Notes: generated from the sequence alone by a model not told the origin. A stretch of 64,000 nucleotides of DNA from Chitinophagales bacterium (GCA_031424775.1 JANPIB010000017.1:3342-67341); one strand, 5' to 3'; positions 17,895-51,200 are shown, numbered from the stretch's first letter. A program made the numbers and translations.

Positions 17895-17932
17895 GCCAGA
17901 GATAGTGTTTGCAAACATCTTACTTTCACACT

Positions 17933-18516: not shown

Positions 18517-18520
18517 CATC

Positions 18521-20044: not shown

Positions 20045-20126
20045 GCCGCAAAGATAACGTTAGCCGCATCTGTTAAAAATTGTTATAAGATCTGATTTTC
20101 ATGAGACCAGCGATGGATTTTCATAG

Positions 20127-20142
20127 TGCCGTACGTACGGCA
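20127..20142. promoter_or_regulatory. Perfect 16-bp palindrome TGCCGTACGTACGGCA (candidate operator)
   Basis: Read directly from the sequence. It sits in the gltX / 20195-ORF divergent intergenic region. Confidence 0.4.
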
Positions 20143-20194
20143 TTGTGTCACCTTAATTCAAACCCATATCTTTAAGCAACTAATTACAGCTCCA

Positions 20195-33684: not shown

Positions 33685-33771
33685 GGAGAGTTGTCCGAGT
33701 GGTTGAAGGAGCACGCCTGGAAAGTGTGTATACGGGAAACTGTATCAAGGGTTCGAATCCCTTACTCTCCG
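33685..33771 (+). tRNA. tRNA-Ser (anticodon GGA), type II with a long variable arm
   Basis: Acceptor stem GGAGAGT/ACTCTCC. Anticodon stem CACGC/GTGTG with loop CTGGAAA. T-arm AAGGG-TTCGAAT-CCCTT. CCA is not encoded. Confidence 0.9.
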
Positions 33772-34168
33772 CAGAACTTCATGTATAACCTTGTAATCAG
33801 TAATGGTGTGGCCAGCAATGATCCTCCAAGCTGCGGCAATGCCAATATTCCTGTTTTTTTAAAGAACGTTGGTGTAGGGTTCTTCATTCTTTTTTTTATA
33901 ATCATGATTTTTTTCAATAGCTCTCCTCACCCTTCGAGAACCTCAGGAGGACATTATGCTTATGGATACGACTTCTTTTATGAACGGGGTTTCATAAAAC
34001 TGTTCAACGGTTATGTCATGTTTGTCTGAAGTATCGTCTTGTTCTTTATTCCCAAATAGTTTTTTTGAAGAAATTCATGATGTAAGACCGATTTAGCTGA
34101 GATTAAAGCGAAGCTAATTAATTCTTCAGTATTTAACCCAATTCATGGATAGACCAAAATACCAGTGC

Positions 34169-34468
34169 TTACCTGATCAATTGCACACAACCTGAAACCG
34201 GCTTTTGTCCGTGAACTTTTGTATTTATTACATAATAGTACGTTCCAACGGCTGCAGGGGATCCGTTTATTTTACCATCCATAGGTGTGTTGCTGGTGGT
34301 TCTGAATACAATAGCTCCTCTCCTGGCATACACCTCGACAACTACTCCGGGATAGCTTGACAGATCAGCTACCTGCCCTGTATCGTTGATGCCATCACCT
34401 AAGGTGAAAAAGCCGAGACGGCTACCACGTTTTTCACTAAGCAATGGAAGTACTACCAAGATCAACAT
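34169..34468 (-). pseudogene. Orphan T9SS type-B C-terminal sorting domain (CTD-only mini-ORF, probable gene remnant)
   Basis: The 99-aa ORF matches the gliding-motility CTD pattern (GDGIND...VYARRGAIVF...DGKINGSPAAVGTYYYVI...GCVQLIR). It has no passenger domain. Only 15 nt separate it from the divergent GT gene. Confidence 0.55.
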
Positions 34469-34483: not shown

Positions 34484-35176
34484 ATGAGTATTAGTATTAT
34501 CATACCTACACTGAATGAAGCAGATACGATAGTACCGATCATTCACTACCTAAAGCAAAACAGTGGATCAATATTAAAAGAAATAATTGTAAGCGATGGG
34601 GGCAGCCAGGACAACACTCTGCAACTTGCGACAAATGCCGGTGCTAACGCATACCTATCTTCGAAAAAAGGCAGAGCAGGTCAGATGAACCATGGTGCCC
34701 GTATAGCTAGTGGAGAAATTCTGTATTTTGTTCATGCAGACACGTTTCCACCGGTATCGTATGCTACTAATATAGTCACAGCGGTGCAAAATGGCTTTAG
34801 TTGTGGAAGGTTTAGAACAGAATTCAATAAGAGGAGTCTTCTGCTTCGCTTAAATGCGTTTTTTACAAGGTTTGACCTTTTTGTTTGTTATGGTGGTGAT
34901 CAAACCTTCTTCATCACAAGTGAACTATTTAATCGAATAAATGGATTTAAAGAAGATATGCTAATCATGGAGGACTATGATATTACCGTCAGAGCAAAAG
35001 CGTACGGTCGCTATAAGATCTTTTCTGATTCTGCTCTAATTTCAGCCCGGAAATACGAAACGAACAGCTGGTTCCAAGTACAAAAAGCGAATTACACCAT
35101 CGTGCAGATGTTTAAAAAGGGTGCCAGTCAACAAGAGATGGTTCAGAAGTACAAGGAACTACTGAACTACCGCTAA
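34484..35176 (+). CDS. GT2 glycosyltransferase, TIGR04283-type (rSAM/selenodomain-associated transferase 2; 'arsenosugar biosynthesis' family)
   Basis: SIIIPTLNEA, VSDGGSQDNT, ILYFVHADT and GGDQTFF blocks, in genomic context with ArsS and TIGR04282. Confidence 0.75.
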   Translation: MSISIIIPTLNEADTIVPIIHYLKQNSGSILKEIIVSDGGSQDNTLQLATNAGANAYLSSKKGRAGQMNHGARIASGEILYFVHADTFPPVSYATNIVTAVQNGFSCGRFRTEFNKRSLLLRLNAFFTRFDLFVCYGGDQTFFITSELFNRINGFKEDMLIMEDYDITVRAKAYGRYKIFSDSALISARKYETNSWFQVQKANYTIVQMFKKGASQQEMVQKYKELLNYR

Positions 35177-35230
35177 ACAAAACAACCTTATACATATTTT
35201 CGCCGTATGTTCATGTAGAACCTTGTTATC

Positions 35231-36283
35231 ATGCAGCAATTTATAACAGGAATACAGCAGGCTGGCATTGGAGTAACCAACGCAGAGGACGCTTTGTTAT
35301 TATATAAGCAAATGTTTTGCATGGATGTGCTCATTTTCGACGATAAAGCCGAAGCATTATTAATGATGAGATACACAGGGGAAAAGGTGCATAGCAGAAG
35401 AGCAATCTTATCAATGAACCTGAATGGAGGTGGAGGTTTTGAAATATGGCAGTTCATCAGCCGCACCGGAAGTAAACCCATTCAAAAACCGGCGCTTGGC
35501 GATCTAGGGATTTTTGCTGTGAAAATAAAAACGAAAAACGTGTGTGCAGCACATGAATTTTTATCAACTGATTCGTCACTACATATTTCTCCCATTTATG
35601 ACAGCCCTGATGACAGAAAGCATTTCTGGGTTACAGATATTTACGGAAACACATTCAATGTTGTTGAAGGTGATGAATGGTTTAAAACGGGCAAAATTTG
35701 TGGTGGAGTTGTTGGTGCAGTAATTGGTGTAAGCAACATGAAGAAAGCACTTCATTTTTATAAAAATACACTCGGGATAAATGAAGTAATCTATTCAGGT
35801 ACCGCATCCATGGAAGATGTACCTGATGAGGCTTTAAGAGGTCAGCAGTTTCAAAGGGTGCTGTTAAAGAAGCCACTGGCAAACAAAGGAGCCTTTAGTC
35901 AGCTTTTTGGATCAATACAAATAGAACTGATTGAAGCAAAAGACAGAACACCCCAAAAGATTTTTGCTAACCGTTATTGGGGTGATTGCGGTTTTATTCA
36001 TCTATGCTTCGATGTACTGAACATGGATGATTTGAAATCAGCTTGTCATTCCTCAGGTTATCAATTTACAGTGGATAGTGCTGATTCATTCAGCATGGGA
36101 AAGAGTGCAGGAAGATTTTGCTATGTAGAAGATCCAGACGGTACATTGATTGAGCTTGTTGAAACACATAAGGTTCCTATCCTTAAAAAGCTTGGTATAT
36201 ATCTAAACCTAAAGAAAAGAAAAGATCAAAAACCATTACCTACATGGATGATCAGTTTGCTAGGATTAAACAAGGTTCGCTAA
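35231..36283 (+). CDS. VOC (glyoxalase/bleomycin-resistance/dioxygenase) superfamily protein, tandem domains
   Basis: 350 aa with two repeats of a VOC-like module. Its 3' end overlaps the convergent acyltransferase by 4 nt. Confidence 0.65.
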   Translation: MQQFITGIQQAGIGVTNAEDALLLYKQMFCMDVLIFDDKAEALLMMRYTGEKVHSRRAILSMNLNGGGGFEIWQFISRTGSKPIQKPALGDLGIFAVKIKTKNVCAAHEFLSTDSSLHISPIYDSPDDRKHFWVTDIYGNTFNVVEGDEWFKTGKICGGVVGAVIGVSNMKKALHFYKNTLGINEVIYSGTASMEDVPDEALRGQQFQRVLLKKPLANKGAFSQLFGSIQIELIEAKDRTPQKIFANRYWGDCGFIHLCFDVLNMDDLKSACHSSGYQFTVDSADSFSMGKSAGRFCYVEDPDGTLIELVETHKVPILKKLGIYLNLKKRKDQKPLPTWMISLLGLNKVR

Positions 36284-37410
36284 ATGATATTTTCAAATGT
36301 TTTCTTTGCTTTACCATCTAGCTTCATCAAATTGGTAAAGCTTTGTAGCTCAATCTTCCAATAAATAGTTACCCATGCCAACAATGGTAGCAACACCCCA
36401 ATGATTCTTACAACCCAATCACCAGTTAAGTTCCAAAAAAATATATTCAATAGAATGAAATACAAAGGATAACAGATCAGCAACATTCCAAAAAGTACAC
36501 TGTCAAAAAACACAGTGCCTTTTGTTTTTTTCCTGATCAATAGCTTAAGTGGATAATATAATGGTGAATGTAATGCTGCACCTAAAACCGCAGGTACAGT
36601 TAAAACGATCAGGGTAAGAAGTGAGAAGGCAAATTTGCCGCAAATGTAATATGGAGCTGACAACTGTTCAGAGTTCACTATCAACTTAGCATTTGCAAGA
36701 TACTGTGTTAACTTTCTGGCATCCCATTCAGGGTGATTACTAATCAACATTTGAACCGCCTTATCATTTCCCTTGCTTTCAATCATTCCATTACTTAAAC
36801 TGCTTGAAAGCTTTTGGTTGAACTGCTGATAGATCTCACCATTGCTCTTTGTCCAACTTAAATCGGAATCAATGATTGCTTGGTCAAAATGAATTACCAC
36901 CGTTTTTCCAAAATAAGTAAATGAATTGTAGCTAATACTCACAGGTAATACCATGAACTTATCAGATATTTTGAGCTGCTGCCATGCATCAACAGCAATT
37001 CGGGCAGATCCTTTTTTTAGTGCTCTCAGCCTCCAATCATTTACACATAAACCTTCTGAGAAGATCAGGAGAATACCATTTTTTAGCAAAACATCTCTGC
37101 ATGCTTCAAAAGTGGCATCATTTAAAGCGAGATTTTCTTTGCCTTCGCTCAACCGATAAATCGGTATGACATTTAAGTACGTTAATATTTTTTTTGCCCA
37201 GGGCTTACGAAATGCATCACCTCTTGCAAGAAAATGAACGGGTTGATTAAATCTGCTGCCTATGATTACAGCATCTAGAAAAGAATTAGGATGATTGCAT
37301 GCTAATAACAACGGCCCCTTCCAATTTAATACAGCAGTGTCGTTCACATAAATCTTTCTGCAATACAAGTTGAGACCACATTTCACCAGTATTTTAAATA
37401 TGCCGTACAA
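36280..37410 (-). CDS. PlsC-type lysophospholipid/glycerol acyltransferase with a C-terminal membrane domain
   Basis: CNHPNSFLD (His/Asp acyltransferase motif) and FSEGL, with about 4 C-terminal TM helices. Confidence 0.75.
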   Translation of the reverse strand: MYGIFKILVKCGLNLYCRKIYVNDTAVLNWKGPLLLACNHPNSFLDAVIIGSRFNQPVHFLARGDAFRKPWAKKILTYLNVIPIYRLSEGKENLALNDATFEACRDVLLKNGILLIFSEGLCVNDWRLRALKKGSARIAVDAWQQLKISDKFMVLPVSISYNSFTYFGKTVVIHFDQAIIDSDLSWTKSNGEIYQQFNQKLSSSLSNGMIESKGNDKAVQMLISNHPEWDARKLTQYLANAKLIVNSEQLSAPYYICGKFAFSLLTLIVLTVPAVLGAALHSPLYYPLKLLIRKKTKGTVFFDSVLFGMLLICYPLYFILLNIFFWNLTGDWVVRIIGVLLPLLAWVTIYWKIELQSFTNLMKLDGKAKKTFENII

Positions 37411-37438
37411 GCAGAGATTTTACTTTTCAAAGTAATGA

Positions 37439-38041
37439 TTATATAGGAACCTGTTGCCGGTATTTTATCCAATCAGGTTCTGTGTCTATATCATGGAGCT
37501 CAGGTAAAAGTTCAAAGGAAAGATCAGAGAGTTTGATATCCGCAAGAGTGGAAGTGAATACAGAATTAGTACTCCATTCTTTATTCCGAAAAAGCTGAGG
37601 CGTGTACTTATTCATGCCAAGCAAATAATAACCCCCATCTGCTGAAGGGCCTATAACCACATCGCTTTGTTGTAAGTGGGAAAAAGCCATATCAATAATT
37701 TCAGCCGTAAGTTGCATACAATCGCTTCCAATAATACAGCAACGCTTATAACCTTTGTTAAATAGATCTTCGAAAGCAGCACTCATTTTGATTCCAAGTT
37801 CCCCTTCGTCTTGCTTCTGCTTTTTGTAAATGTTATTCTCCCATAGATCGTTAGTATTCACCTCATCAGCATACCAAAGAAATTTATCAGATAACAAATC
37901 TCTGGTGATGACATGGGTATGCTGCAACATTTTCATGTAAATATTTACAGCTTCCTGGTCTCCTACAGTTGCAGCCAATCTTGTTTTTACTTTTCCCGGT
38001 ATAGGGTTGCGTACGAAAATAATAAGAGCTTGTTTTGTCAT
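37439..38041 (-). CDS. TIGR04282-type (DUF2064) nucleotidyl/glycosyl-transferase-like protein ('arsenosugar biosynthesis' family)
   Basis: ALIIFVRNPIPGKVKTRLA N-terminus and DGGYYLLG motif. Confidence 0.8.
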   Translation of the reverse strand: MTKQALIIFVRNPIPGKVKTRLAATVGDQEAVNIYMKMLQHTHVITRDLLSDKFLWYADEVNTNDLWENNIYKKQKQDEGELGIKMSAAFEDLFNKGYKRCCIIGSDCMQLTAEIIDMAFSHLQQSDVVIGPSADGGYYLLGMNKYTPQLFRNKEWSTNSVFTSTLADIKLSDLSFELLPELHDIDTEPDWIKYRQQVPI

Positions 38042-38111
38042 TTTATTAAACGTATTCTATTACTTGCTAAAGCTTCTTCTTGGGTTGACAGCATCAAATA
38101 TACTTTTGCAT

Positions 38112-39155
38112 TTATTGTGCTACAGATCCACCACAACTACTTCCTGCACCTGCAGTACAGCCATAGCAATGTTGATTTAAAACGATGTTTCTGTTATTAA
38201 TTTCATTGATGTTAAACTGTGAGAGATGTGTTGATGTATTGCAGTCTACTTTTAGATCAAGCATCTGGTTGAAATCACAATCATAGAGTAGTCCATCCCA
38301 ACCTACTGAAATAGTATTGCGACACATTACATTCTCTGCAGCCGAAGGGTTGAATGAACTTACCAGTTTCTGCATGTACATTTCATAATTTCCACTTACC
38401 AGAAGATAGTCAAGGTATCTACTTATGGGCATGTTGGTGATTACATATAAGTGATTGAAATCAATGCCAAATTCTTTCTTTAATTCATGCTTATACTCTA
38501 GTTCAAGACTGACCTGTGCAGGTGGGAGAAAAGCACCTGCAGGATTATACACCAGGTTTAAGATTAAACCAGTTCCATCTTTGCTATAACCCACTTCATT
38601 CAGCATTTGCAATGCTTTGATGCTATCTTCAAATACCCCATCACCTCTTTGCCTATCTGTTCTGTCTTTAGTATAAGATGGAAGAGAAGAAACAACCTCT
38701 ACTTTATGATACTTAAAGAATTGAGGAAGATCATGGAACTTTTTATTAGCAAGTATAATCGTGAGGTTACATCTTACGATGATATGCCGTTGCAGTTTTG
38801 ATATTTCTTCAACAAACCATCTGAAATGAGGATTCATTTCAGGAGCACCTCCTGTAAGATCAACCGTAGTGAATGAGGAAACATTGTGAAGTACATCCAA
38901 ACATTGCTGCATGGTTTCTCTTGTCATTATCTCTTTCCGGTCGGGTCCTGCATCAACATGGCAGTGCTTGCAAACCTGGTTACACATCTTACCCACGTTC
39001 ACCTGCAATATCTCGGGTGCCGTAGGTTTTAGTGGAAACAAACCTATATCCTGCAACTTATCAGTAAACAAAGGAAACTTATGCTGATGCTCTAATACAT
39101 CCACCTGGTGACCTGCATCGGCTAATGCATTTTTCATTGCCAGTAGTGACTTCAT
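38112..39155 (-). CDS. arsS: ArsS-type radical SAM / Cys-rich-domain protein (TIGR04167 family)
   Basis: CNQVCKHCH radical-SAM cluster motif and a C-terminal Cys-rich tail HCYGCTAGAGSSCGG. Confidence 0.85.
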   Translation of the reverse strand: MKSLLAMKNALADAGHQVDVLEHQHKFPLFTDKLQDIGLFPLKPTAPEILQVNVGKMCNQVCKHCHVDAGPDRKEIMTRETMQQCLDVLHNVSSFTTVDLTGGAPEMNPHFRWFVEEISKLQRHIIVRCNLTIILANKKFHDLPQFFKYHKVEVVSSLPSYTKDRTDRQRGDGVFEDSIKALQMLNEVGYSKDGTGLILNLVYNPAGAFLPPAQVSLELEYKHELKKEFGIDFNHLYVITNMPISRYLDYLLVSGNYEMYMQKLVSSFNPSAAENVMCRNTISVGWDGLLYDCDFNQMLDLKVDCNTSTHLSQFNINEINNRNIVLNQHCYGCTAGAGSSCGGSVAQ

Positions 39156-39177
39156 AATATTAGCGATTGTGTGATTA

Positions 39178-39513
39178 TCACATAGCGATCTCTTTCACCT
39201 TATTCATCATTTGTACACCATGCACAAGTGAAGCACCACCTCTTATAGCTGCAGCTACATGTATAGCCTCCATCATCTGGCTTTCACTCCAGCCTTTCTC
39301 AAAAGCATCATTACTGTATGCATCTATACAATAAGGACATTGCACTCCATGAGCTACAGCTAAAGCAATGAGCGACTTTTCTCTTGCTGTCAAATTCCCA
39401 TCAGAAAATACTTCACCATACCAGGCAAAGAATTTATCTGCCATAGGTTTTTGAAATTCTCCTATTGCTCCGAATTTAGCCAGATCTTCTGCATTGTAAT
39501 AGTGATTGCTCAT
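39178..39513 (-). CDS. AhpD/carboxymuconolactone-decarboxylase-fold 'arsenosugar-associated peroxidase-like' protein
   Basis: 111 aa with the CPYC motif in ALAVAHGVQCPYCIDAY, 22 nt upstream of arsS. Confidence 0.8.
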   Translation of the reverse strand: MSNHYYNAEDLAKFGAIGEFQKPMADKFFAWYGEVFSDGNLTAREKSLIALAVAHGVQCPYCIDAYSNDAFEKGWSESQMMEAIHVAAAIRGGASLVHGVQMMNKVKEIAM

Positions 39514-39522
39514 ACTAAAGTT

Positions 39523-40782
39523 TTAAAATGTATAGTTGTTTAAATAAAGGCTCCAATCATATTTTTTGAATTCAATACTGGTACTTGCATTCACTCCAGG
39601 CACACCGTTTTGTTCCAATAACTTCCGCATATTCTTTTTACCACCAAAGTCAGCCCTGAACCAACTCATAATTGCTGGAAGATGAATGGTGTTTTGTACC
39701 AAATCAAATTCTGCTTCACTATTTAAATAAGCTTTGGTAGCAGCATTAAGCTGCTCATTGATTTTAGATGATGTAAAAAAAGCAATCGGCGGACAACTCT
39801 TTGCTCCACAGTTTAAAGCAAAGTGAATCCGATAATCCACTTTATCAACTCTTAATATTTTTTCAATCTTACCTGGGAAAAAACGATTTACATAACCAAG
39901 ACTCCATTTTGTTTTCGACCTTCTTAAAATACCATGTTCAATTTCATCCAGGCTCCATGCTCTCCCTGCTATATTAATCAGTTTCGCTTTAAAAAACTTG
40001 TTTCGGCTTTTATATTGCTCAGGGTTGTTTTTAAGAAGAAACTGAGTGAAGCCATTGTAAATATTGATCCAAAATGCTTTTTTTCTATCATCACTAGTAA
40101 GTTCATTTTTAAGCGTTTCAATGGTTAACGAATTGAGCTGCTCTTGCAGATGCTTTAACGGTGCACCAGTTTTAGCGGCATAAATAAAATCAGCTGACAA
40201 ACCAAGAATACCTGTATCATTTCTGTTAGTCACAACAGTATCCTTAACAGTAATCGTACTACTATCTACTGATATTTTAGTTGGAACAACTGGTTTTTGA
40301 TTTGTATTCAACCATTGCTCAATGTTCTCTGTGGTCATCTCAGCTGTTGAAGGTATGTCGATTATCAGTCCCATCTTATTTATAACAACAGTATATGGGT
40401 ATGATCCAGGCTGGAAAAATGATTCTATTAACTTATCGGAATCTATCGCTAACGGTATATCGAACAATTTTTTTTTCTGAATAAATGATTTTAGCAACCC
40501 TTCATCCTCAGTTGATATCAAAAAAAATTGCACTCTTCCTTTATACTGATTTTGTAATTCAATAAGATGCGGCAATGCTTTAATGCAGGGATTGCACCAT
40601 GTTCCAAAGAAATCTATTATGATCAACTCTTGCTTTAAGCTGTTAAAATCGGTTACAGAAGTAGTATAGTTGAGTATTTTTTTGACTGAAAAATTCTGAA
40701 CTACATCTCCACTTTCGTACGCTTTTTGAGCTAAGGAAGCCCCACAGAGAAAAGCGAGTATAATAGAAAACAAATACCTCAT
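39523..40782 (-). CDS. Secreted thioredoxin-fold (TlpA-like) / DUF547 fusion protein
   Basis: Signal peptide and FFGTWCNPC redox motif in the N-terminal half. The C-terminal half carries DUF547-like blocks (FWINIYN, LDEIEHGILR, HFALNCGAKSCPP). Confidence 0.75.
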   Translation of the reverse strand: MRYLFSIILAFLCGASLAQKAYESGDVVQNFSVKKILNYTTSVTDFNSLKQELIIIDFFGTWCNPCIKALPHLIELQNQYKGRVQFFLISTEDEGLLKSFIQKKKLFDIPLAIDSDKLIESFFQPGSYPYTVVINKMGLIIDIPSTAEMTTENIEQWLNTNQKPVVPTKISVDSSTITVKDTVVTNRNDTGILGLSADFIYAAKTGAPLKHLQEQLNSLTIETLKNELTSDDRKKAFWINIYNGFTQFLLKNNPEQYKSRNKFFKAKLINIAGRAWSLDEIEHGILRRSKTKWSLGYVNRFFPGKIEKILRVDKVDYRIHFALNCGAKSCPPIAFFTSSKINEQLNAATKAYLNSEAEFDLVQNTIHLPAIMSWFRADFGGKKNMRKLLEQNGVPGVNASTSIEFKKYDWSLYLNNYTF

Positions 40783-40872
40783 ATTATTCCAAGATAAGTA
40801 TCTTTCGCTTATCCTTGTTTTATACGTAAGTTGATGAAAAAAAGTTCCCAGCTTAAGGGTATTTTTTAAACA

Positions 40873-41664
40873 ATGAAATCCATCGCTAATAAAATTGTTT
40901 GGATCACAGGTGCATCTTCAGGAATTGGAGAAGCACTCGCTTATTCTATAGCAAAAGCTGGCGCCAGGCTTATCATAAGTGCTCGAGATGTTGAAAAACT
41001 CCTACTTATGCAAAAAAAGTGTGGTAGCCAAAATGTACAGATTCTACCATTAGATCTCGAAAGCGGCAGTTTGATTGCAAAAAAAGTAACCACAGCAATA
41101 AGTATGTTTAATGGTCTGGACATTCTTATTAATAATGCGGGTATTTCTCAGCGAAGCCAAGCAAATGAAACTGAGTTCCAGGTCTATCGCAGGATAATGG
41201 AAGTTAACTATTTTGGAACAGTAGCATTAACCCAGCAGGTACTTATTTTTTTTCATGAACAGAATAGAGGCACTGTTGCTGTCATCAGCAGCGTGGCAGG
41301 TATTACTGGACTGCCTTACAGAACAGCGTATTGCAGCAGTAAGTATGCATTAGAAGGTTATATGGCATCTCTACGGACAGAATTATGGAAAACAAATATT
41401 AAACTCTTAATTATAAGACCTGGAGCTGTAAACACAAGTATTGCTAAACATGCTTTAACAGGTGAAGGCAAGCCGTTTAATAAAAGCGATAATATGATTG
41501 AGAAGGGAATGGAGCCTGCATTCGTAGCTGAGAAGATCGTGGATGCAATTGCTACAGGAAAAAAAGAGTTGATGATCGGCTCCTTCAAAGAACGTTCAAT
41601 GTTTATTATCAACCGATTGTTTCCTAAGATCGTATTTAATACTGCTAAAAAGATAAAATATTAG
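40873..41664 (+). CDS. Short-chain dehydrogenase/reductase
   Basis: TGASSGIG, NNAG and YCSSK (YxxxK) motifs. Confidence 0.9.
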   Translation: MKSIANKIVWITGASSGIGEALAYSIAKAGARLIISARDVEKLLLMQKKCGSQNVQILPLDLESGSLIAKKVTTAISMFNGLDILINNAGISQRSQANETEFQVYRRIMEVNYFGTVALTQQVLIFFHEQNRGTVAVISSVAGITGLPYRTAYCSSKYALEGYMASLRTELWKTNIKLLIIRPGAVNTSIAKHALTGEGKPFNKSDNMIEKGMEPAFVAEKIVDAIATGKKELMIGSFKERSMFIINRLFPKIVFNTAKKIKY

Positions 41665-41666
41665 CA

Positions 41667-42491
41667 ATGGAAAACATGCTTCAAAAGATAAGTGAAACTG
41701 CATCTTATTTAAAAGAGAAGGGATTTAGCGGAGCAAAAGCAGGTGTTGTATTAGGAACCGGATTGGGTTCTTTCGTTGAGAAGATTAAAGTGATTCATTC
41801 CGTTTCATATAATGATATCCCGCATTTTCCAATATCAACTGTAGAGTTTCACAAAGGACAACTTATCTATGGAAAATTGGGAGATGTTAAAGTGATCGTT
41901 ATGCAGGGAAGATTCCATTATTACGAAGGATATACAATGCAACAGATTACTTTTCCTGTACGTGTAATGAAAGATTTGGGTATCGATTATTTATTGCTCA
42001 GTAACGCTGCAGGAGGGATGAATCTTAGTTATCGTAAAGGTGATCTTGTACTGATAAATGATCACATCAATCAGCTTCCCGAAAATCCACTTAGAGGCTT
42101 GAACGATACAGCCTTTGGTAACAGATTCGTTGATATGAGTATGCCATACAATCAAAAAATTAATGAAAATATTATTACCACTGCATCATCACTCAACATA
42201 ACACTAAAACAAGGTGTATACGTTGCTGTATCAGGTCCTAACCTTGAAACCAAAGCCGAATACCGTCATCTTCGAAGCATAGGTGCAGATATGGTTGGTA
42301 TGAGTACGGTACCAGAAGTTATTGTGGCTAATCATATAGGACTACCATGTGCTGCAGTTAGTATTATCACAGATGAATGTGATCCTGATAATTTACAACC
42401 GGTAAATATTGCAGAAATTATTGCTGTAGCTGGTAAGGCTGATATTTTACTGTCGAACCTTTTAACAAACATTATAGAGCGTTACTCATAG
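41667..42491 (+). CDS. Purine nucleoside phosphorylase (trimeric PNP/MTAP family)
   Basis: GRFHYYEGY, SNAAGG and VGMSTVPE motifs. It starts 2 nt after the SDR stop. Confidence 0.9.
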   Translation: MENMLQKISETASYLKEKGFSGAKAGVVLGTGLGSFVEKIKVIHSVSYNDIPHFPISTVEFHKGQLIYGKLGDVKVIVMQGRFHYYEGYTMQQITFPVRVMKDLGIDYLLLSNAAGGMNLSYRKGDLVLINDHINQLPENPLRGLNDTAFGNRFVDMSMPYNQKINENIITTASSLNITLKQGVYVAVSGPNLETKAEYRHLRSIGADMVGMSTVPEVIVANHIGLPCAAVSIITDECDPDNLQPVNIAEIIAVAGKADILLSNLLTNIIERYS

Positions 42492-42586: not shown

Positions 42587-44752
42587 CTATAGCCTTATTA
42601 TAGAATTTAAACGAATGTCTTTTGAAGAACTACCTATAATAATATTATAAATACCACCATCTATAACCCATATATTTTTTACATCATTAAAATACTGGAA
42701 GGCATCTTCGTTTAAAGTTATGGTGATCGTTTTTTGTTCTCCAGGCTGCAAAAATATTTTTTGAAACCCTTTCAGTTCTTTTGTTGGTCGAGGCAGTAAT
42801 GCGTTTGGTTGTGCTACATATATTTGTGCAACCTCAGCTCCAGCCCTTTTGCCTATATTCTTTAAATTAAAGGTGATGATAGCTTTTTTACCTGTTGCTG
42901 TGACTTTAAGGTTACTATAGGCGAAAGAAGTATAAGACAAACCATGTCCGAAAGAAAATTGGGGCTCAACTTTGTAAGTATCGTAATAGCGATATCCTAC
43001 ATAAATATCATCAAGATAATTTACAAGAAGAGTATGAGATGTATCACCAGGGTACTCTCCCAATGCATGAGAACCATGGTCCTCAAGTTTTTTGGGGAAG
43101 GTCATGGGAAGTTTTCCTGATGGATTTACCTCACCAAAAAGAATCTTCGCCAACGCATTTCCACCTTCCATACCTGCGTACCAGTTTTGTACTACAGCTG
43201 GCACTTTTTCGATCCACTGATTCATATCTATTGCACCGCCACCCATCAATACAACAATTGTTTTAGGATTTGCCTTTACAACTGCATTAATTAATTCGTT
43301 CTGTCCAAAAGGCATTTTCATATCCGGTTTATCTATGTCTTCAGCATCATATGCATTATCGCGCCAAACGCTGTAATTATAACCATGAGTCCATCCACCT
43401 ACAAATATTACAACATCCGCTTTAGCTGCAACTTGTGCAGCTTCGTTAATAAGATCAATGTTAGCTTCGGCTCCTCTTGTTATATCATATCCTTTTGCGT
43501 AGACAATGTTTACATTGTCTCCTAACAAATTTTGCAACCCTTGCAACGGTGTCACTTCATAAAATGCTTTTACCTGAGAACTTCCACCACCCATTGATTG
43601 CTTTCTTTCAGCATTGTAACCGATAACAGCAATTGTCTTAACAGCCGTCTTATTCAATGGCAGAATTTGATTCTGATTTTTAAGAAGCACTATGCCTTCT
43701 TCTGCAATCTTTAGTACTGTTTGTTGATGTTGCTTGCTATTGTACTCTCCTTTTTTTCTTCCGCCATCAAGCATTTTTGTTTTACTCATCACATATAGGA
43801 TTCTGCGAACTTTCTCATCCAAAAGGTATTCAGGAAACTTACCTGATCTGACAAGCGAGATAACAGTATCACCCATCCAGAATTTTCCATAATCCGGATT
43901 GGGTAACATATGCAAATCAGTTCCCATTTCAAGGTCCATCCCATTCCAAAGTGCCTGCATTGTATTATGCACAGCGTCCCAATCACTCATAGCAATCCCT
44001 TTAAAGCCCCATTCGTTTCTGAGTATTTGGGTAAGCAGGTAATGGTTTTCAGAAGCCCATTGGCCTCTAAATTTATTATAAGAACCCATGATAGTGTTAG
44101 CACCTGCTTCTTGAATTGCCGCTTTAAATCCGGGTAAATAAATTTCTCGCAGAGCTCTTTCACTCATATTTACATCAATAGTAAATCGTTTGCTTTCCTG
44201 GTTATTTGCAGCATAGTGTTTAACACAGGCAGAAATACCCTGATCTTGAATTCCCATGATATTTCCAACTGCCATTCGGGAAAGGAGATATGGATCTTCG
44301 CTGAGATATTCAAAATTTCTACCGTTAAGTGGAGACCTGATAATATTGATACCAGGACCAAGTATTACATCTTTACCACGAAAGTTTGCTTCACTACCTA
44401 ACACAGAACCAAATGCATAACCAAGTTGCGGATTCCAAGTTGATGCAAGGCACACTCCAACCGGCAAATAAGTTCCTGAATCAAGTTTATCATTATCAAG
44501 TTGCCAGTCTCTTCCATGTTCTGGACGAACACCATGCGGACCGTCAGAAGTAGTCAGTTCTGGAATTTTCAATCGCTTAACACCACCAGAAGTAAAAGAC
44601 GATGATGCATGAATCATGTTCACCTTCTCCTCAAGGGTCATTTTTTTTATCAGTGCGTTGATCTTTGCAAGGGTATCTTGTTTTTGTGCAGAAGATATAA
44701 TGCTAAACAACAGATTTATGAAAACAAACGTAAAAGCAATTAACCTTTTCAT
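42587..44752 (-). CDS. GH3 beta-glucosidase
   Basis: 721 aa with a signal peptide, a GH3 N-terminal domain containing GIAMSDW (nucleophile Asp region) and a C-terminal FnIII-like domain. Confidence 0.92.
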   Translation of the reverse strand: MKRLIAFTFVFINLLFSIISSAQKQDTLAKINALIKKMTLEEKVNMIHASSSFTSGGVKRLKIPELTTSDGPHGVRPEHGRDWQLDNDKLDSGTYLPVGVCLASTWNPQLGYAFGSVLGSEANFRGKDVILGPGINIIRSPLNGRNFEYLSEDPYLLSRMAVGNIMGIQDQGISACVKHYAANNQESKRFTIDVNMSERALREIYLPGFKAAIQEAGANTIMGSYNKFRGQWASENHYLLTQILRNEWGFKGIAMSDWDAVHNTMQALWNGMDLEMGTDLHMLPNPDYGKFWMGDTVISLVRSGKFPEYLLDEKVRRILYVMSKTKMLDGGRKKGEYNSKQHQQTVLKIAEEGIVLLKNQNQILPLNKTAVKTIAVIGYNAERKQSMGGGSSQVKAFYEVTPLQGLQNLLGDNVNIVYAKGYDITRGAEANIDLINEAAQVAAKADVVIFVGGWTHGYNYSVWRDNAYDAEDIDKPDMKMPFGQNELINAVVKANPKTIVVLMGGGAIDMNQWIEKVPAVVQNWYAGMEGGNALAKILFGEVNPSGKLPMTFPKKLEDHGSHALGEYPGDTSHTLLVNYLDDIYVGYRYYDTYKVEPQFSFGHGLSYTSFAYSNLKVTATGKKAIITFNLKNIGKRAGAEVAQIYVAQPNALLPRPTKELKGFQKIFLQPGEQKTITITLNEDAFQYFNDVKNIWVIDGGIYNIIIGSSSKDIRLNSIIRL

Positions 44753-44949
44753 AATTTCATGATTGAGAATTCAGTGGAATCGTTATCTATCAGAACCTCA
44801 CTTTGTTTTTGTTCTTCCTAGGATATTGACGAGCCCAATAAGAATTTTTTAAAATGTTCTTTTCCAATAAAAGGTGTGAGCACTGACTAGAAAACCAGTG
44901 CTGTACCATTTATATGATTGCTTGCTTGTAGTAAAATGCAAATGAGAAA

Positions 44950-45792
44950 CTATTCTATCATTTTATAAACACGTATGTAGTCAATCAACATTGTTTGTGG
45001 AAATATACTGTCATCAACACCTTGTGCACCACCCCAATTTCCGCCAATTGCAAGATTTAGAAGTAAATGAAAACGCTTATCGAAAGGCCAAGCTGCAGCA
45101 CCTTTTCCTTCATTTACAAAAGTGAATACAAGTTGATCGTCAAAATAACCGCGAACAGCATAGGGTGTCCAATCAACTCTGTACTTGTGAAAATCACTTA
45201 TTGCTGTAGGAATAATTTGTGATGAAGTTTTCTGTGTTCCAATACTATGATTGTAAGATTCGGTATGTACACTAAAGTGAACTTTATTAGCATCATAACC
45301 AACATGCTCCATAATATCGATTTCTCCAGATTTTGGCCAGTTTCCATAAGCCCAATCTGTAGGCAACATCCAGATGGCTGGCCAAGTACCTCTTCCAGAA
45401 GGAAGCTTTGCTCGTGTTTCAATTCTACCATAAAGAAAATCACCCTTATTTTTAGAAACTAACCTTGCAGATGAATAATTAAGCCCACCAGTCAATTCTT
45501 TTCTTGCAGTAATCTCTAAATTTCCATTCTGCACCTTAGCATTGTTCTGAAGATTGGTATAGTATTGCAACTCGTTATTACCCCATCCACCACCTCCAAG
45601 ATCATATCCCCATTTGGCAGTATTTGGAAGTCCAGCAACATCAAATTCATCAGACCAAACAGGAACAGTTTCAAATTGCCAGTTTTTATCTACTGGTGGT
45701 TGAGGAGTGAACACTGTACCCCCACCTGTTGATTTTTTAGAACATGATGACGCAAACAGCATCACCACTAATAACAGATTTATCATCTTCAT
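44950..45792 (-). CDS. GH16 endo-beta-1,3-glucanase (laminarinase-type) lipoprotein
   Basis: EIDIMEH catalytic ExDxxE motif and lipobox FASSC. The start is moved to the ATG at 45792. Confidence 0.9.
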   Translation of the reverse strand: MKMINLLLVVMLFASSCSKKSTGGGTVFTPQPPVDKNWQFETVPVWSDEFDVAGLPNTAKWGYDLGGGGWGNNELQYYTNLQNNAKVQNGNLEITARKELTGGLNYSSARLVSKNKGDFLYGRIETRAKLPSGRGTWPAIWMLPTDWAYGNWPKSGEIDIMEHVGYDANKVHFSVHTESYNHSIGTQKTSSQIIPTAISDFHKYRVDWTPYAVRGYFDDQLVFTFVNEGKGAAAWPFDKRFHLLLNLAIGGNWGGAQGVDDSIFPQTMLIDYIRVYKMIE

Positions 45793-45811
45793 AACTCTTT
45801 TATTCGCCTTT

Positions 45812-46699
45812 TTAAATAGAAACAAATGTGAATTGCCATGTTCCCCATCCGTAATCAAGTTTTAAAACCATTCTTGTTTGTGTGATTGAAACAATCTGGT
45901 AGGTGATACTTGGCTGAGGCGTTGTTACAGCTGCATCAGGAGGATTAGCAGCTTTATATAAGCCCATATGTGCTCCGGTTCCTATAACTTTTAATTTATT
46001 ATTGGTGATCACATCGAAAGTGAATGGACCACTTGAAACCCAAGGCTGAAATTGAGCAGGTATGTCTGCATTAGGATGGCAACCGATAGCCGGCATCCCA
46101 GCAGGATGTGGATTTCCAGCTTCATCATCAACCCAAGTATCTCCTTTGGTATCAAATGTCATTACACCACCTGTTTTAGTGAATGTCCATTCGTCGTTGA
46201 ATTGACAGCCCCTGGTAGCAACATCCCCAAGGCTGTTAGCCCACCATGTTGCACTATAATCACTAGGACCAATCCACAATGCTCCAGCTTCAGGAGCAAG
46301 CTTCCATTTCTTAGTGCTATTACCAGTTAACATTTTAAGCGGAGTTAATGCAGCAGGGTCATCAAGTAAAACATTGATCACCTGTGAGGCTGTATCCATT
46401 CCACTTTGTCCGTAAGTCAGCAGTCTAACACGATAGGATCCTTTATCAGGAAAGTAAACAGTATCAACTTGCTTACCTAAGGCATAAATACCTGTTGCTT
46501 TATCCCAATCGTAACGATAACTGTATGTTGATGTACTGGTGAGCAAATATTTATTTACCTGTCCAGTAATAGGTGTAACAACAAAGGATGCTTTCGGATT
46601 TGGAGACAGATCATTAACATCATACTTACAAGATGTAAGGAGAAATGTCGAGAGAATTATCACAAAAGCACTATGACGAGCAGTTATAATTTGTTTCAT
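45812..46699 (-). CDS. PUL-encoded surface lipoprotein with an N-terminal PKD-like domain (probable glycan-binding protein)
   Basis: Lipobox LLTSC after the start is moved to 46699, with a PKD-like segment (YDWDKATG...GSYRVRLL). It sits directly after susD. Confidence 0.55.
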   Translation of the reverse strand: MKQIITARHSAFVIILSTFLLTSCKYDVNDLSPNPKASFVVTPITGQVNKYLLTSTSTYSYRYDWDKATGIYALGKQVDTVYFPDKGSYRVRLLTYGQSGMDTASQVINVLLDDPAALTPLKMLTGNSTKKWKLAPEAGALWIGPSDYSATWWANSLGDVATRGCQFNDEWTFTKTGGVMTFDTKGDTWVDDEAGNPHPAGMPAIGCHPNADIPAQFQPWVSSGPFTFDVITNNKLKVIGTGAHMGLYKAANPPDAAVTTPQPSITYQIVSITQTRMVLKLDYGWGTWQFTFVSI

Positions 46700-46721
46700 T
46701 ATCAAATTTTTTGTTGATGAA

Positions 46722-48233
46722 TTAATAGCCAGAATTCTGAGTGAGTCCACCAGTTCTTACATCGTAATCAGGAACAGGCAACAGATTATGTTTTGCTACA
46801 AAACCTAAAGATCCCAACTCTGTTGTGGCAAGACCCCAACGAACCAGGTCAGTAAAACGAACACCTTCGAAAGCAAGTTCAAGTTGTCTTTCTTTAACGA
46901 TATCAGTAAATAAGGCTGTGCCACCGCTAGCAATTGGTGCAAGACCAGACCTTGACCTCACCATATTAACATAGCCTCGTGATTTAGGATCATTACCAGA
47001 TTTATTATAGGCTTCTGCGGCCATCAGCAACACATCTGCAAAACGGATATGTCTCCAATTTGTGCCATAATTCAATTCACTAATCGGACCACCCGTTTGA
47101 CTGCTAAATGATCCATATTTTCTTTGGAAAAATCCTTCATAATCGTAAGCTGTAGGATTACTCCAATTACCCCCAGCTGCAATTAACTCGGCTGATGACA
47201 TTACAGTTTGCCTTCTTCTATTTACATCTCCTGCAGTTATATAAGCATCCCATAGCTTTTGCTTTGGCAACACAAAACCCCAACCACCTATTAAAGAATC
47301 TGTAGGAGCTTTAGTATAATAATCAGCTCTCGGCCCCATTAGTTGTATATGGATATTACTTTCTGGTGCACCACCCCAAGGAAAATTTCCCCAGTCATAA
47401 GCTCTCTGGTTTGTGTATGATATCTCAAAAACAGATTCCTGACCAAACTCTAAGTTTTTTGAGAAAGCAGCTCCAATTGAAGATGCTAATGCATATTGAT
47501 TAGATGTGATAACCGATTCTAATTGAATAGCAGCTTCTGCAAATTTTTGCTGGTACAATAAAACTTTCCCCAAAAGTGCCTGAGCAGTACCTTTTGAAAC
47601 CCTGAACTTGTCTGCAGAAGAATAAACATTCTTCAATGGAAGCACAGCAATTGCTTCTGTCAGATCTTTTTCGATCTGGGCATATACACTTGCTTTTGGT
47701 GCTCTTCCGGTTGAAGTATAAGAAGCTGGCGGAATATCATTCAACACCAAAGGAACATCGCCCCAAAGAGAAACTAACTCAAAGTAATTGTAAGCTCTTA
47801 ACACTTTCGCCTCAGCAATTAATCTTTGGCGTAAAGCGCTTGCTGGATCAATACGATTGATCACTTTATTTGCACGATAAATTGTAAAGTAACTCATTCT
47901 CCATGCATCTCTGACTTTATCATTTGTTGCGTCGAAGTTGAAGTTATCCAGTGTTTGATAACCTGGCTGATCGCCAGCATCACTTCCACCTGCATTTGAC
48001 TCATCAGAAAGTAAAGTTTTTACCATATACAAGCTTGCCCAATTGTTATTGTAATGAGCTTGCATCATGTCATACACACCATAAACAGCCTGTGTAGCAT
48101 CGCCATCTGTTTTATAGAAATCCTGTTCAGGAAAAGCACCCGGAACTTCCTGCTCCAGGAATTTTTTGCATCCACTACTCAGTGTCAGGATGATAAAACA
48201 TACTATGGTTATTTTTATAAATAGATTCTTCAT
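46722..48233 (-). CDS. susD: SusD/RagB-family nutrient-binding outer-membrane lipoprotein
   Basis: Lipobox LSSGC and TPR-like SusD blocks (RAYNYFELVSLWGDVPL, ERQLELAFEGVRFTDLVRWG). Confidence 0.9.
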   Translation of the reverse strand: MKNLFIKITIVCFIILTLSSGCKKFLEQEVPGAFPEQDFYKTDGDATQAVYGVYDMMQAHYNNNWASLYMVKTLLSDESNAGGSDAGDQPGYQTLDNFNFDATNDKVRDAWRMSYFTIYRANKVINRIDPASALRQRLIAEAKVLRAYNYFELVSLWGDVPLVLNDIPPASYTSTGRAPKASVYAQIEKDLTEAIAVLPLKNVYSSADKFRVSKGTAQALLGKVLLYQQKFAEAAIQLESVITSNQYALASSIGAAFSKNLEFGQESVFEISYTNQRAYDWGNFPWGGAPESNIHIQLMGPRADYYTKAPTDSLIGGWGFVLPKQKLWDAYITAGDVNRRRQTVMSSAELIAAGGNWSNPTAYDYEGFFQRKYGSFSSQTGGPISELNYGTNWRHIRFADVLLMAAEAYNKSGNDPKSRGYVNMVRSRSGLAPIASGGTALFTDIVKERQLELAFEGVRFTDLVRWGLATTELGSLGFVAKHNLLPVPDYDVRTGGLTQNSGY

Positions 48234-48255
48234 CTTTTTAGGTTTTGATTGTTGA

Positions 48256-51200
48256 TTAGAAAGTAAATGTTAACCCAGCAACAGCTCTCCTTGGAATCGG
48301 ATAACCGCCACGATCAATACCAATACTATTTCCGCCATTACTTCCTGCCTCAGGGTCTACACCTGGGTATTTTGTGAAGGTGAAGAAGTCATCAAGCGAT
48401 ACATACACTCTGGCATTTTTAAACTTTATCTTGCCAGCAACTGATTTTGGTAAAGTATAACCCAATTGCATCTGACGAATTCTTGTGAAAGAACCATCGA
48501 ACACCATTAAATCACTGTTATATATGTATGGATTGGATGTATTTGCTGCAAACCAGGAGTTAGTGCTTCCAGCACCTGTCCACCGGTTTGCATAGAAGAA
48601 GTAAGGTTTATTTGCAGTTGATCTATCTGTACGATTAAAGCCCATCAGCTTTTCATTTCCATATTGCCCTTGTACAAAAACGGTAAGATCAAAATTCTTG
48701 TAGCTGAGGTTTGCCCTGAAACCATACATAAAGTCTGGATGTGGACTTCCGATGTTAGTCATATCTGCAGGAGATATTTGCTTATCACCATTTATATCTA
48801 AAACGATTGGATCGCCAGGTTGTGGAGCATATCCAATTAATCCATTTTTTGTAATGTAAGATGATATCTCACTTTGAGTTTGAAATATACCATCTGTTTT
48901 GTAACCATTGAAATACCAGATAGGATTGCCAACCTGCATTGCTGTAGCAGCCCAGCCTGTTCCAATACCAGCACCATATAGGATAGGTGAGTTTGGATCT
49001 AGGTATGTAACTTCATTCTTTAATGTGGTAAAATTTACGAATAACTCGTAACCAAGGCTCCTTTTAGAGCCACCCTGGTTTTTGTATCCTAATTCAATTT
49101 CAAAACCTGAATTCACAACATTTCCAGCATTTACTGTTCTTAAAATATTCCCTGCAAACAAAGGAGCATTACCACCGGTCAAAAGATCTTTTGTTGTTTT
49201 CTTATAGTAATCTAAGGTTACTGTAAGCCTGTTTTTTAAGAAAGACAGGTCTAATCCAAAATCGATTTGCTCACTTGTTTCCCAGGTAAGTTGAGGATAA
49301 GCAAGACTTGTTGGCGCTGCGCCAACCATTAAACCGCCGTTAGCATCAGGATACAATAAACCTGCACCAATTGAGTTAAGCCACTCTCCTAAACCTACAC
49401 TTGATAGACTACCATTCTGTCCCCAACTTGCTCTTAATTTACCATAGTTCATAAAACTTGATCTGAAGAAGTCTTCACTTGAAAAAACCCATCCACTAGA
49501 AACCGATGGGAAAGTACCCCACTGATAATCTGGTGAAAAGAGTGAAGAACCATCTCTTCTTAATGTAGCAGCAAACAGGTATTTATTTTTATAGTCATAG
49601 TTAACTCTTCCATAGAAAGAGGCAAGCGTTCTGTCGAAAGCAATACTTCCGATACGATCTAAAGCATCTGGAACAAAATCAGCATAAGAAAACTTATCTT
49701 CTTCCTTAAACAATCCTGAATAGCTGCCCCCCATATGTTGTTCATGTGTTTTTTGTGCGGAAACACCTGCTAACAAAGACAGAGAGTGATTACCGAATCG
49801 TTTTGTATAGGTGGCAAAATTCTCCAATTGCCATGTAAACCAGGTATTGCTGTAATCATATCCGTTAGCAATAGTATTCTGACTTTCAGATGAGAACCAG
49901 AAAGTTGGTGTCCATCCATGCCCTACCTGGAAAGCTGCATCAATACCAAAACGTGAAGTGAATTTCAGGTTCTTTATAGCTTCTATCTCGGCGAAAACGT
50001 TACCTACGATCTTGTTTTGAACATTCTCACCTTTTGCCATATCAATCCTTGCCAATGGATTTCCGTATTCGCCTTTCAGGAAATTTGATAAACCATAAAG
50101 GTTACCGTTTGCATCAACCCTTAATGGATGTCCTGCATTGATTGCATTTTGAACGTGTGTTGGAAGTGCGGAACCGGAAGGATAACTCACAGGAGTGGTT
50201 GGATCCATCACCAATGCACTTCCCAAAATAGACCCAAATTCATCATTCTCAGATATAGCTCTACGCCTGTGGTGTGAGTAAACAAGTCTGTTACCAAAGT
50301 TTAACCAGGGCTTTATTTTAGAATCTGAATTAAACCGAACAGTGTAACGATTGAATCTTGCTTTTTCACCACCAACAATACCTTCCTGAGAAAAGATGGT
50401 ACCATTAACAAGGTAGGTACTCTTATCGTTTCCACCGCTAAGGGTTAATGAATGATGTTGTTGAGGTGCAGTTTGCAGCACTTCCCTCATCCAGTTAGTA
50501 CCCTCACCTATATTAGCAACATCACTCATAGTTGGTGCACCAGCCACTCCGGCTTCCTGGAGGTATTGCTGATATTGCTTAGCGTTCATCATTTTTACAA
50601 AATCGTCTTTCACAGATTGCATTGCAAACTGGGCATTATAAGTAATATCTGAGGTCCCCTTTTTTCCTGTTTTTGTAGTAATGATCACTACACCGTTTGC
50701 ACCTTCAGCTCCATATATGGCAGCTGAAGCAGCATCTTTTAAAATTTCAATTGATTCAACTTCAGAAGGATCAATAGACTCCATACCACCTGCTCTAATC
50801 CCATCTATAATAAATAATGGATTGTTGCTTCTGTTTGAACCTGTACCCCTGATCCTTACGCTAAGTCCAGCACCTGGTTGGCCGGAATTGGGAACAATCT
50901 GAACACCTGCTGTTCTTCCCTGAAGTGCTTGTTCAATTCTTGTGTTGGACACAGTCGTTAACTGATCAGCCTTTACTGAAGAAATGGCACCTGTGACCAA
51001 TGCCTTCTTTTGCTGACCATAACCGACCACTACCACTTCATTTAAAGAGCCAGTACCTTCTGACAATGAGATATTCAGGTCTCTAGCCTGATTTACAACT
51101 ACTTCCTCATTTGCCATACCTGTAAAAGATATCACCAGGACTGAACCCGGCTTTGGAACATTTATGGAGAAAACCCCATTTATGTCAGTTACCGTGGCAG

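Follow-up and report, generated by a model that had tools for sequence, protein, structure and literature searches.

An arsenosugar-type gene cluster without arsM in a Chitinophagales bacterium: nine conserved genes and a possible route beyond ArsS

What does a heterotrophic bacterium make with ArsS, the radical S-adenosylmethionine (SAM) enzyme of arsenosugar synthesis, when no gene for the arsenite methyltransferase ArsM lies beside it, and which of the surrounding genes take part? The question is raised by a 64,000-nt stretch of DNA from a Chitinophagales bacterium (GCA_031424775.1, JANPIB010000017.1:3342-67341; hereafter the window, with positions counted from its first nucleotide), in which a preliminary description had recognised seven closely packed genes around arsS. 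In many foods and waters, organic arsenic is present mainly as arsenosugars and arsenolipids, and the known enzymes of their synthesis are the first two only, ArsM and ArsS. The characterised reaction of ArsS is the adenosylation of trivalent dimethylarsenic, DMAs(III), to 5′-deoxy-5′-dimethylarsinoyl-adenosine. Removal of the adenine and attachment of the arsenoribose to glycerol or a lipid have been a hypothesis on paper for decades, and our literature searches turned up no work dealing with arsenosugars in Bacteroidota or with any enzyme downstream of ArsS. We define the unit as nine genes in three transcription units (34484-42491). With moderate confidence, we read it as an arsenosugar-pathway cluster with an inferred route from ArsS through a purine nucleoside phosphorylase (PNP), a DUF2064 protein and a GT2 glycosyltransferase to a lipid form involving PlsC, VOC and SDR proteins.

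Four of the nine proteins are bona fide members of the arsenosugar set defined by NCBI. ArsS (38112-39155, minus strand, 347 aa) scores 453.3 bits on TIGR04167, against an equivalog cut-off of 300, and covers profile positions 3-303 of 303. Residues 58-65 (CNQVCKHC) form the radical SAM CX3CX2C motif (PF04055, 39.2 bits), and residues 210-344 match DUF3641 (PF12345, 186.6 bits), with the Cys-rich tail HCYGCTAGAGSSCGG. NCBIfam also returned a distant match of ArsS to HpnH (E-value 1.5e-6), and a PDB sequence search with ArsS as the query gave no match. The three partners, all less than 3 kb from ArsS and over their cut-offs, are an AhpD-like protein with a CPYC motif (39178-39513, minus strand, 111 aa; TIGR04169, 176.3 bits, cut-off 120), the DUF2064 protein (37439-38041, minus strand, 200 aa; TIGR04282, 212.8 bits, cut-off 134; PF09837, 105.6 bits) and a soluble GT2 (34484-35176, plus strand, 230 aa; TIGR04283, 207.7 bits, cut-off 182; PF00535, 65 bits).

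The other five genes are arranged around these. On the plus strand, GT2 is followed by a gene for a VOC-superfamily protein, which converges on the plsC gene. The two open reading frames (ORFs) have 36280-36283 in common, the VOC stop codon TAA occupying 36281-36283 and the PlsC stop being the complement of 36280-36282. The minus-strand unit comprises PlsC, DUF2064, ArsS, the AhpD-like protein and a thioredoxin-DUF547 (Trx-DUF547) fusion, with spacers of 28, 70, 22 and 9 nt. An A+T-rich spacer of 90 nt (40783-40872), presumed to hold promoters, separates Trx-DUF547 from a divergent SDR gene, and the PNP gene starts 3 nt past the SDR stop. We count the unit as nine genes because SDR and PNP recur in related clusters, and all nine ORFs are intact and full length, with their catalytic motifs kept. 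The host is an uncultured soil or freshwater member of the Bacteroidota and the cluster is the Chitinophagaceae-type version. The preliminary description was accurate on the seven ORFs, their coordinates, the convergent 4-nt overlap and the minus-strand gaps, which it had put at 9-70 nt. Its family assignments were borne out by hidden Markov model (HMM) searches, with TIGR04167, TIGR04169, TIGR04282 and TIGR04283 over their curated cut-offs and PF04784 at 108.8 bits, and the motifs it had listed (CNQVCKHC and the Cys-rich tail in ArsS, CPYC in the AhpD-like protein, C-terminal membrane segments in PlsC) are present. All seven members are real and the acyltransferase is indeed embedded in the operon; the extent had been drawn too small, and the SDR-PNP flank was missed.

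Membership of the cluster was assessed in two comparative sets. A scan of species-representative genomes gave at least 598 ArsS relatives, of which the best 80, nearly all from Bacteroidota and at 60-76% identity, were used; all ORFs within 10 kb of ArsS were clustered for these 80 loci plus the window (81 loci in total). The second set was seeded with the VOC protein, in a metagenome search made regardless of gene context, and consisted of 40 loci of at least 8 kb. Across the 81 ArsS loci, DUF2064 was found in 44, PNP in 26, GT2 in 25, DUF547 (fused or alone) in 17, a rhodanese (NF045521) in 15, a fatty-acid-hydroxylase-family protein resembling OlsE in nine, VOC in seven, SDR in seven and PlsC in six. 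The AhpD-like protein nearly always adjoins ArsS, as it does in 72 of the 81. It also resembles the AhpD portion of the ArsM/AhpD fusion selenoprotein NF041537 (E-value 1.7e-5), and together these observations fit a protein that holds trivalent methylarsenic or hands it over.

Seen from the VOC gene, the neighbours were GT2 (26 of 40 loci), DUF2064 (21), PlsC (17), ArsS (15), PNP (12), DUF547 (11), SDR (10) and ArsM (10). Because a search blind to context recovers GT2, DUF2064 and PlsC as neighbours, VOC, PlsC and SDR are genuine members of a cluster sub-variant, within which PlsC and VOC are conserved. PNP, SDR, VOC, PlsC and DUF547 are all recurrent cluster members; the cluster genes co-occur in well over 100 independent loci, and the arrangement is far beyond chance.

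The preliminary description had reported no arsM, arsR, arsC, acr3 or arsB in view, and this was upheld across the 64-kb window. A tblastn search of the window with an arsenosugar-type ArsM gave a best E-value of 1.4. NCBIfam and Pfam scans of 40 other window ORFs returned housekeeping, type IX secretion system (T9SS)/gliding, polysaccharide-utilisation and glycosidase genes, with neither arsM nor any ars gene among them. When every window ORF of at least 70 aa was scanned for motifs, no class I methyltransferase, ArsR, ArsC, Acr3 or ArsA signature emerged. The cluster must receive its methylated arsenic either from an arsM in another part of the genome or from its surroundings. Among the 81 ArsS loci, 31 carry a 323-aa methyltransferase, which scores 581.6 bits (cut-off 400) on NF038099, “arsenosugar biosynthesis arsenite methyltransferase ArsM”. 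Of the 80 related species-level loci, 31 have this ArsM no more than 10 kb away from ArsS, and 49 have none within that distance.

The position of arsM in relatives is informative. Between DUF2064 and the convergent VOC gene is a slot with PlsC, ArsM, both or neither in it; in 29 loci with both ArsS and VOC, these contents were found 11 (PlsC only), 10 (ArsM only), five and three times, respectively. Two telling loci were reached through homologues of PlsC. In Asinibacterium sp. OR53 (L163), the genes run PNP, Trx-DUF547, AhpD, ArsS, DUF2064, ArsM and PlsC, followed by VOC and GT2; in a metagenome-assembled genome (L164), Trx, PNP and SDR precede DUF547, AhpD, ArsS, DUF2064, ArsM and PlsC, again followed by VOC and GT2. 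From DUF547 to GT2, both match the window in gene order except that ArsM separates DUF2064 from PlsC; the SDR-PNP pair is shared by L164. All nine of the ArsS proteins most similar to that of the window (76-77% identity) are encoded in clusters with the NF038099 ArsM. The architecture with PlsC and no arsM is also present in L082, L091, L092 and L108, and in the nearest relative, L166 (VOC 86% identical), PlsC directly follows DUF2064 with no arsM between. Given this recurrence, the window represents a real, recurrent arsM-less variant and not an assembly accident.

Some further features of related loci were noted. In L166, a metallophosphoesterase gene, a hypothetical gene and a SusD/SusC-like pair (12843-19738 of that locus) split DUF2064-PlsC from the ArsS part. 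A PiT-family phosphate/sulfate-type transporter adjoins ArsM in L016, L019, L046, L077 and L078, and a pyridine-nucleotide-disulfide oxidoreductase with MerA and dihydrolipoyl dehydrogenase among its relatives adjoins GT2 or ArsM in L010, L011, L015, L016 and L046. These are possible partners for arsenate uptake and reductant supply, respectively.

How might the nine proteins act together? The proposed route would start with the CxxC proteins, which could keep dimethylarsenite reduced or pass it on; the AhpD-like protein would work in the cytoplasm, and Trx-DUF547, which is apparently exported, in the periplasm. Trx-DUF547 (39523-40782, minus strand, 419 aa) combines DUF547 (PF04784) with matches to AhpC-TSA, Redoxin and Thioredoxin and to the ResA-like NF002854 (65.6 bits), and carries the motifs CNPC, in the thioredoxin domain, and CGAKSC. 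Its N-terminus, MRYLFSIILAFLCGASLAQ, looks like a signal peptide. A Foldseek search with the AlphaFold2 (AF2) model (predicted local distance difference test score, pLDDT, 81) matched the thioredoxin domain to extracytoplasmic ResA and Etrx; all matches were to thioredoxin domains, with none for DUF547. Given the signal-peptide-like N-terminus and the ResA/Etrx-like domain, the protein probably acts outside the cytoplasm. ArsS would then transfer the 5′-deoxyadenosyl group of SAM to arsenic, giving 5′-deoxy-5′-dimethylarsinoyl-adenosine.

The most informative mechanistic clue of the cluster is the PNP (41667-42491, plus strand, 274 aa), a trimeric-type enzyme that scores 345.4 bits on NF006054 (cut-off 218). 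It fails the MTAP model TIGR01694 (104.3 bits, cut-off 274.85) and is not a member of that family. In human PNP, Asn243 selects 6-oxopurines and His257 binds the 5′-hydroxyl; adenine is favoured by the N243D change and by the Asp that MTAP has at the corresponding position. The cluster PNP has neither human residue: Asp236 aligns with Asn243 and Ile248 with His257. The same pattern holds in all 42 cluster-linked PNP copies (42/42), the first position being Asp and the second Ile or Leu. With an Asp as in MTAP and Ile/Leu in place of the His that binds the 5′-hydroxyl, the enzyme looks suited to 5′-substituted adenosines. It would remove adenine from the ArsS product by phosphorolysis, yielding 5-deoxy-5-dimethylarsinoyl-alpha-ribose-1-phosphate. 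ArsS-linked PNP genes occupy at least four placements: upstream in divergent orientation, between ArsS and DUF2064, behind DUF2064, and on the upstream side of AhpD.

The next steps would fall to DUF2064 and GT2. DUF2064 has a CofC-like nucleotide-diphospho-sugar transferase fold. It matches PDB entry 3CGX, a “putative nucleotide-diphospho-sugar transferase” (E-value 2.9e-25), has a weak match to CofC in Pfam (25.4 bits) and contains GKVKTRL, which we take to be a CofC-like nucleotidyltransferase signature. It could thus make an NDP-sugar, joining a nucleotide to 5-deoxy-5-dimethylarsinoyl-ribose-1-phosphate. Many loci of Cytophagales type (L018-L020, L023, L043, L047, L052, L066 and L071) have a second, divergent DUF2064 paralogue (28-37% identity) directly upstream of AhpD-ArsS, and in L166 a second DUF2064 gene (19766-20341 of that locus) adjoins ArsS. 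Among solved structures, GT2 comes closest in sequence to GpgS and DPMS, and both matches are weak. If GT2 is inverting, like other GT2 enzymes, it would place the arsenoribose on a glycerol-type acceptor to give the beta-riboside of natural arsenosugars.

Finally, the membrane-anchored PlsC, with VOC and SDR, may make or tailor an acylated (lipid) form. PlsC (36280-37410, minus strand, 376 aa) is an LPLAT-type acyltransferase (PF01553, 59.6 bits, gathering score 23) that falls below the 1-acyl-glycerol-3-phosphate acyltransferase model TIGR00530 (43.4 bits, cut-off 102.95). Three hydrophobic segments lie at its C-terminus (residues 254-285, 298-329 and 331-351). The motifs NHPN-F-D, ARGD and F-EG are invariant in the family, and N39, H40, P41, N42, F44 and D46 are invariant across 27 homologues; by its sequence, the protein is a divergent LPLAT with an invariant H-x5-D. 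The SDR (40873-41664, plus strand, 263 aa) is a classical oxidoreductase (NF004825, 234.8 bits, cut-off 215), and its relatives lie between GT2 and VOC, or beside PNP, in L003, L017, L025, L109, L117, L135 and L164. As pure speculation, PlsC might be a dihydroxyacetone phosphate (DHAP) acyltransferase and SDR the reductase of an acyl-DHAP route.

The VOC protein (35231-36283, plus strand, 350 aa) has two domains (four modules) and a conserved C-terminal tail. Pfam matches to Glyoxalase (30.9-32.6 bits) and Glyoxalase_4 are weak. The AF2 model (pLDDT 88.9) has four paired beta-alpha-beta-beta-beta modules, and the best Foldseek matches are GLOD4, 1zsw and PcpA (template modelling scores 0.5-0.6, E-values 1e-13 to 1e-10). 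On this modelling, the matches are to generic two-domain VOC proteins and point to no subfamily or specific function. Invariant residues include H54, E71, E232, H257 and E308. PDB sequence searches with VOC and with PlsC gave no match. ArsI-type C-As lyases require an As(III)-binding vicinal Cys pair; we dropped ArsI as an identity for VOC, as its sequence has no such pair.

Distant VOC homologues (41-49% identity) have an adjacent SDR, with no ArsS, GT2 or PlsC nearby (L138, L140, L144, L147, L148, L150 and L152-L154), and the VOC-SDR pair may have an older, arsenic-independent function. The pairs in high-G+C contigs without ArsS were too noisy for a function to be derived from them. In L138 and L144, VOC lies near an ORF whose N-terminus, identified by eye, resembles CzcA/CusA-type RND efflux proteins. 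Elsewhere in the window, BshA, the first enzyme of bacillithiol synthesis, is encoded at 23426-24565 (550.6 bits), and the organism probably uses bacillithiol. FosB, a member of the VOC family, uses bacillithiol, and this thiol could be one that reduces or carries arsenicals.

A membrane protein of the fatty-acid-hydroxylase/sterol-desaturase family recurs in arsenosugar clusters, often in those without PlsC. It was found near ArsS in L005, L011, L013, L014, L027, L072, L074 and L077, and also in L081, L084, L086, L104, L108 and L121; its best NCBIfam match is the ornithine lipid hydroxylase OlsE (88.6 bits, below cut-off). The membrane domain of PlsC, this recurring OlsE-like hydroxylase and the conserved C-terminal tail of VOC make a lipid-linked product, an arsenolipid, plausible. 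The preliminary description had proposed a lipid-anchored product, either of arsenolipid type or a non-arsenic glycolipid. The first is a reasonable inference, with PlsC and VOC conserved; the non-arsenic alternative fares worse, as set out below.

Several observations weigh against the route from ArsS to a lipid form. Loss of the adenine is still hypothetical in one review, and the literature searched shows no test of any step after ArsS. A source of methylated arsenic was not seen in the 64-kb window. The PNP also passes the housekeeping PNP model TIGR01700 (303.6 bits, cut-off 293.35), and Asp-type PNPs are found among solved structures retrieved regardless of cluster; on this evidence, it may have been recruited as a general enzyme or may act in 5′-deoxyadenosine salvage. 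DUF2064 could itself be a glycosyltransferase and not a nucleotidyltransferase. GpgS, the closest solved relative of GT2, is a retaining enzyme, though the match is weak. Motif I of PlsC (residues 39-46, NHPNSFLD) is H-x5-D and not the canonical H-x4-D, and homologues of PlsC and VOC sometimes lie without a nearby ArsS (L165, L124, L125 and L138).

Set against these points, the alternatives must be weighed. The cluster could be a conventional one, with arsM elsewhere, water-soluble oxo-arsenosugars as the product and PlsC, VOC and SDR as separate lipid or housekeeping neighbours. A dispersed arsM is common, as the 49 loci with none within 10 kb show; the analysis covered 64 kb of a 73.8-kb contig; and on some contigs PlsC, VOC and VOC-SDR homologues occur without ArsS (L165, L124, L125 and L138-L154). 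We nevertheless regard this as unlikely: homologues of VOC with about 50% identity or more nearly always have as neighbours a TIGR04283 GT2 and PlsC, DUF2064 or ArsM, the ends of the VOC and PlsC ORFs overlap, and Chitinophagaceae, Flavobacterium and Adhaeribacter all retain the GT2-(SDR)-VOC unit and the order DUF2064-PlsC. It is also rather improbable that the genome has no arsM at all and draws on methylated arsenic made by the community, with Trx-DUF547 and the AhpD-like protein reducing pentavalent DMAs(V) to DMAs(III). The absence of arsM from exactly the slot that it holds in L163 and L164, the presence of the arsM-less PlsC form in several lineages including the nearest relative, and the retention of two thiol-redox proteins, one apparently exported, speak for such scavenging; yet its basis is the 64-kb window and not the whole genome, and Trx-DUF547 is equally present with arsM (L163, L127 and others), so it is not specific to scavenging. 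An extension of this idea, which we offer tentatively and think doubtful, is that some heterotrophic Bacteroidota make arsenolipids from the dimethylarsenic of their neighbours, by Trx-DUF547/AhpD reduction, the ArsS-PNP-DUF2064-GT2 steps and acylation by the PlsC that occupies the arsM slot.

Two further readings we judge very unlikely. An ArsS-like enzyme that adenosylates some other acceptor, towards a 5′-deoxyribosyl glycolipid, would agree with a window that has no arsM, arsR, arsC, acr3 or arsB and with accessory proteins that are mostly uncharacterised. It sits poorly with a full-length ArsS at 453 bits on an equivalog model that is a close orthologue, at 76-77% identity, of enzymes encoded beside arsenosugar-type ArsM, as in all nine of its closest relatives, and with the presence of the same PlsC and VOC genes, and of SDR, in arsM-containing clusters; for these reasons a non-arsenic product, as raised in the preliminary description, is disfavoured. 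Nor is the cluster at all likely to be a decaying, non-functional remnant left after loss of arsM. Its usual arsM position is empty, and a truncated T9SS-domain ORF and a tRNA-Ser gene at the left edge suggest a past rearrangement, but nine full-length ORFs with catalytic motifs, and an arsM-less arrangement kept in relatives whose proteins are 43-86% identical, indicate continued selection. The reading of an arsenosugar-pathway cluster with a route to a lipid form is thus the one we retain.

Other genes lie at the edges of the cluster. About 700 nt upstream lies tRNA-Ser(GGA) (33685-33772), the only hit of an Rfam scan near the cluster, which returned no riboswitch or other RNA element. A 99-aa ORF (34169-34468) consists of a T9SS type-B C-terminal sorting domain alone (32.5 bits, cut-off 35) and has the look of a 3′ end left over from a larger gene, ending where GT2 begins; the left edge may be the scar of an insertion or rearrangement. 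Directly downstream is a polysaccharide-utilisation region (42587-51360), unrelated to the cluster. HMM scans identified a GH3 gene (42587-44752) and a GH16-like glucanase gene (44950-45858), followed by ORFs of SusD-like (46722-48233) and SusC-like (48256-51360) size, the larger of which groups with SusC-like ORFs of related loci.

The conserved neighbours of ArsS amount to a complete, testable set of candidates for the later pathway: PNP, the CofC-like transferase, GT2, the acyltransferase and VOC/SDR. Cultured carriers exist in which to test them, among them Asinibacterium sp. OR53 (with arsM and PlsC), Flavobacterium turcicum F-339 (L017), Adhaeribacter rhizoryzae DK36 (L018) and Segetibacter aerophilus. 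Arsenosugar-type genes are widespread in heterotrophic Bacteroidota, with a close ArsS relative in at least 598 species-level genomes, and the division between arsM-containing and arsM-less forms bears on which soil and water organisms make methylated arsenic and which merely transform it. If true, arsenolipid synthesis from scavenged dimethylarsenic would open arsenolipid biosynthesis, and the steps that follow ArsS, to genetic study for the first time. In the literature searched, we found no description of a conserved cluster PNP with MTAP-like residues, of the GT2-(SDR)-VOC and DUF2064-PlsC units, or of a single position at which ArsM and PlsC alternate.

What is already known is the core set, named arsenosugar biosynthesis by NCBI, and the biochemistry of ArsS. 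Of the NCBIfam families under that name (TIGR04167, NF038099, TIGR04169, TIGR04282, TIGR04283 and NF045521), the window has four and lacks ArsM and the rhodanese. In the NCBIfam results, none of PNP, SDR, VOC and PlsC bears a name specific to arsenosugars, although all four are conserved in the sub-variant. The ArsM/ArsS pathway of Synechocystis sp. PCC 6803 uses a radical SAM enzyme of the same family (TIGR04167). Unlike that system, the present one belongs to a heterotroph, lacks arsM both in the cluster and in the 64-kb window, and includes five further conserved partners of unstudied role (PNP, SDR, VOC, PlsC and DUF547). PlsC resembles known LPLAT enzymes in its PF01553 domain, in the equivalents of motifs II and III (ARGD and FSEG) and in its membrane association; it differs in falling under the TIGR00530 cut-off, in its H-x5-D, in a C-terminal membrane domain of three segments and in its arsenic-related setting.

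Two systems in which 5′-modified adenosines are cleaved offer the closest parallels for the proposed removal of adenine. In the DHAP-shunt salvage of 5′-deoxyadenosine, MtnP, the methylthioadenosine phosphorylase, phosphorolyses 5′-modified adenosines to a ribose-1-phosphate derivative. The cluster PNP resembles MTAP in the Asp at the base-specificity position and in the hydrophobic residue replacing the His that binds the 5′-hydroxyl, whereas it scores as a PNP and has no MtnA-type isomerase or aldolase nearby. In the synthesis of the bacteriohopanepolyol side chain, the radical SAM enzyme HpnH adds a 5′-deoxyadenosyl group and HpnG, a PNP-superfamily enzyme, then removes the adenine to leave a ribosyl derivative. 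Here, the acceptor would be arsenic and not the double bond of hopene, and the PNP is a PunA-type trimeric enzyme, not an HpnG orthologue. The pairing of ArsS with PNP nonetheless suggests the same logic, a likeness of mechanism and not of family.

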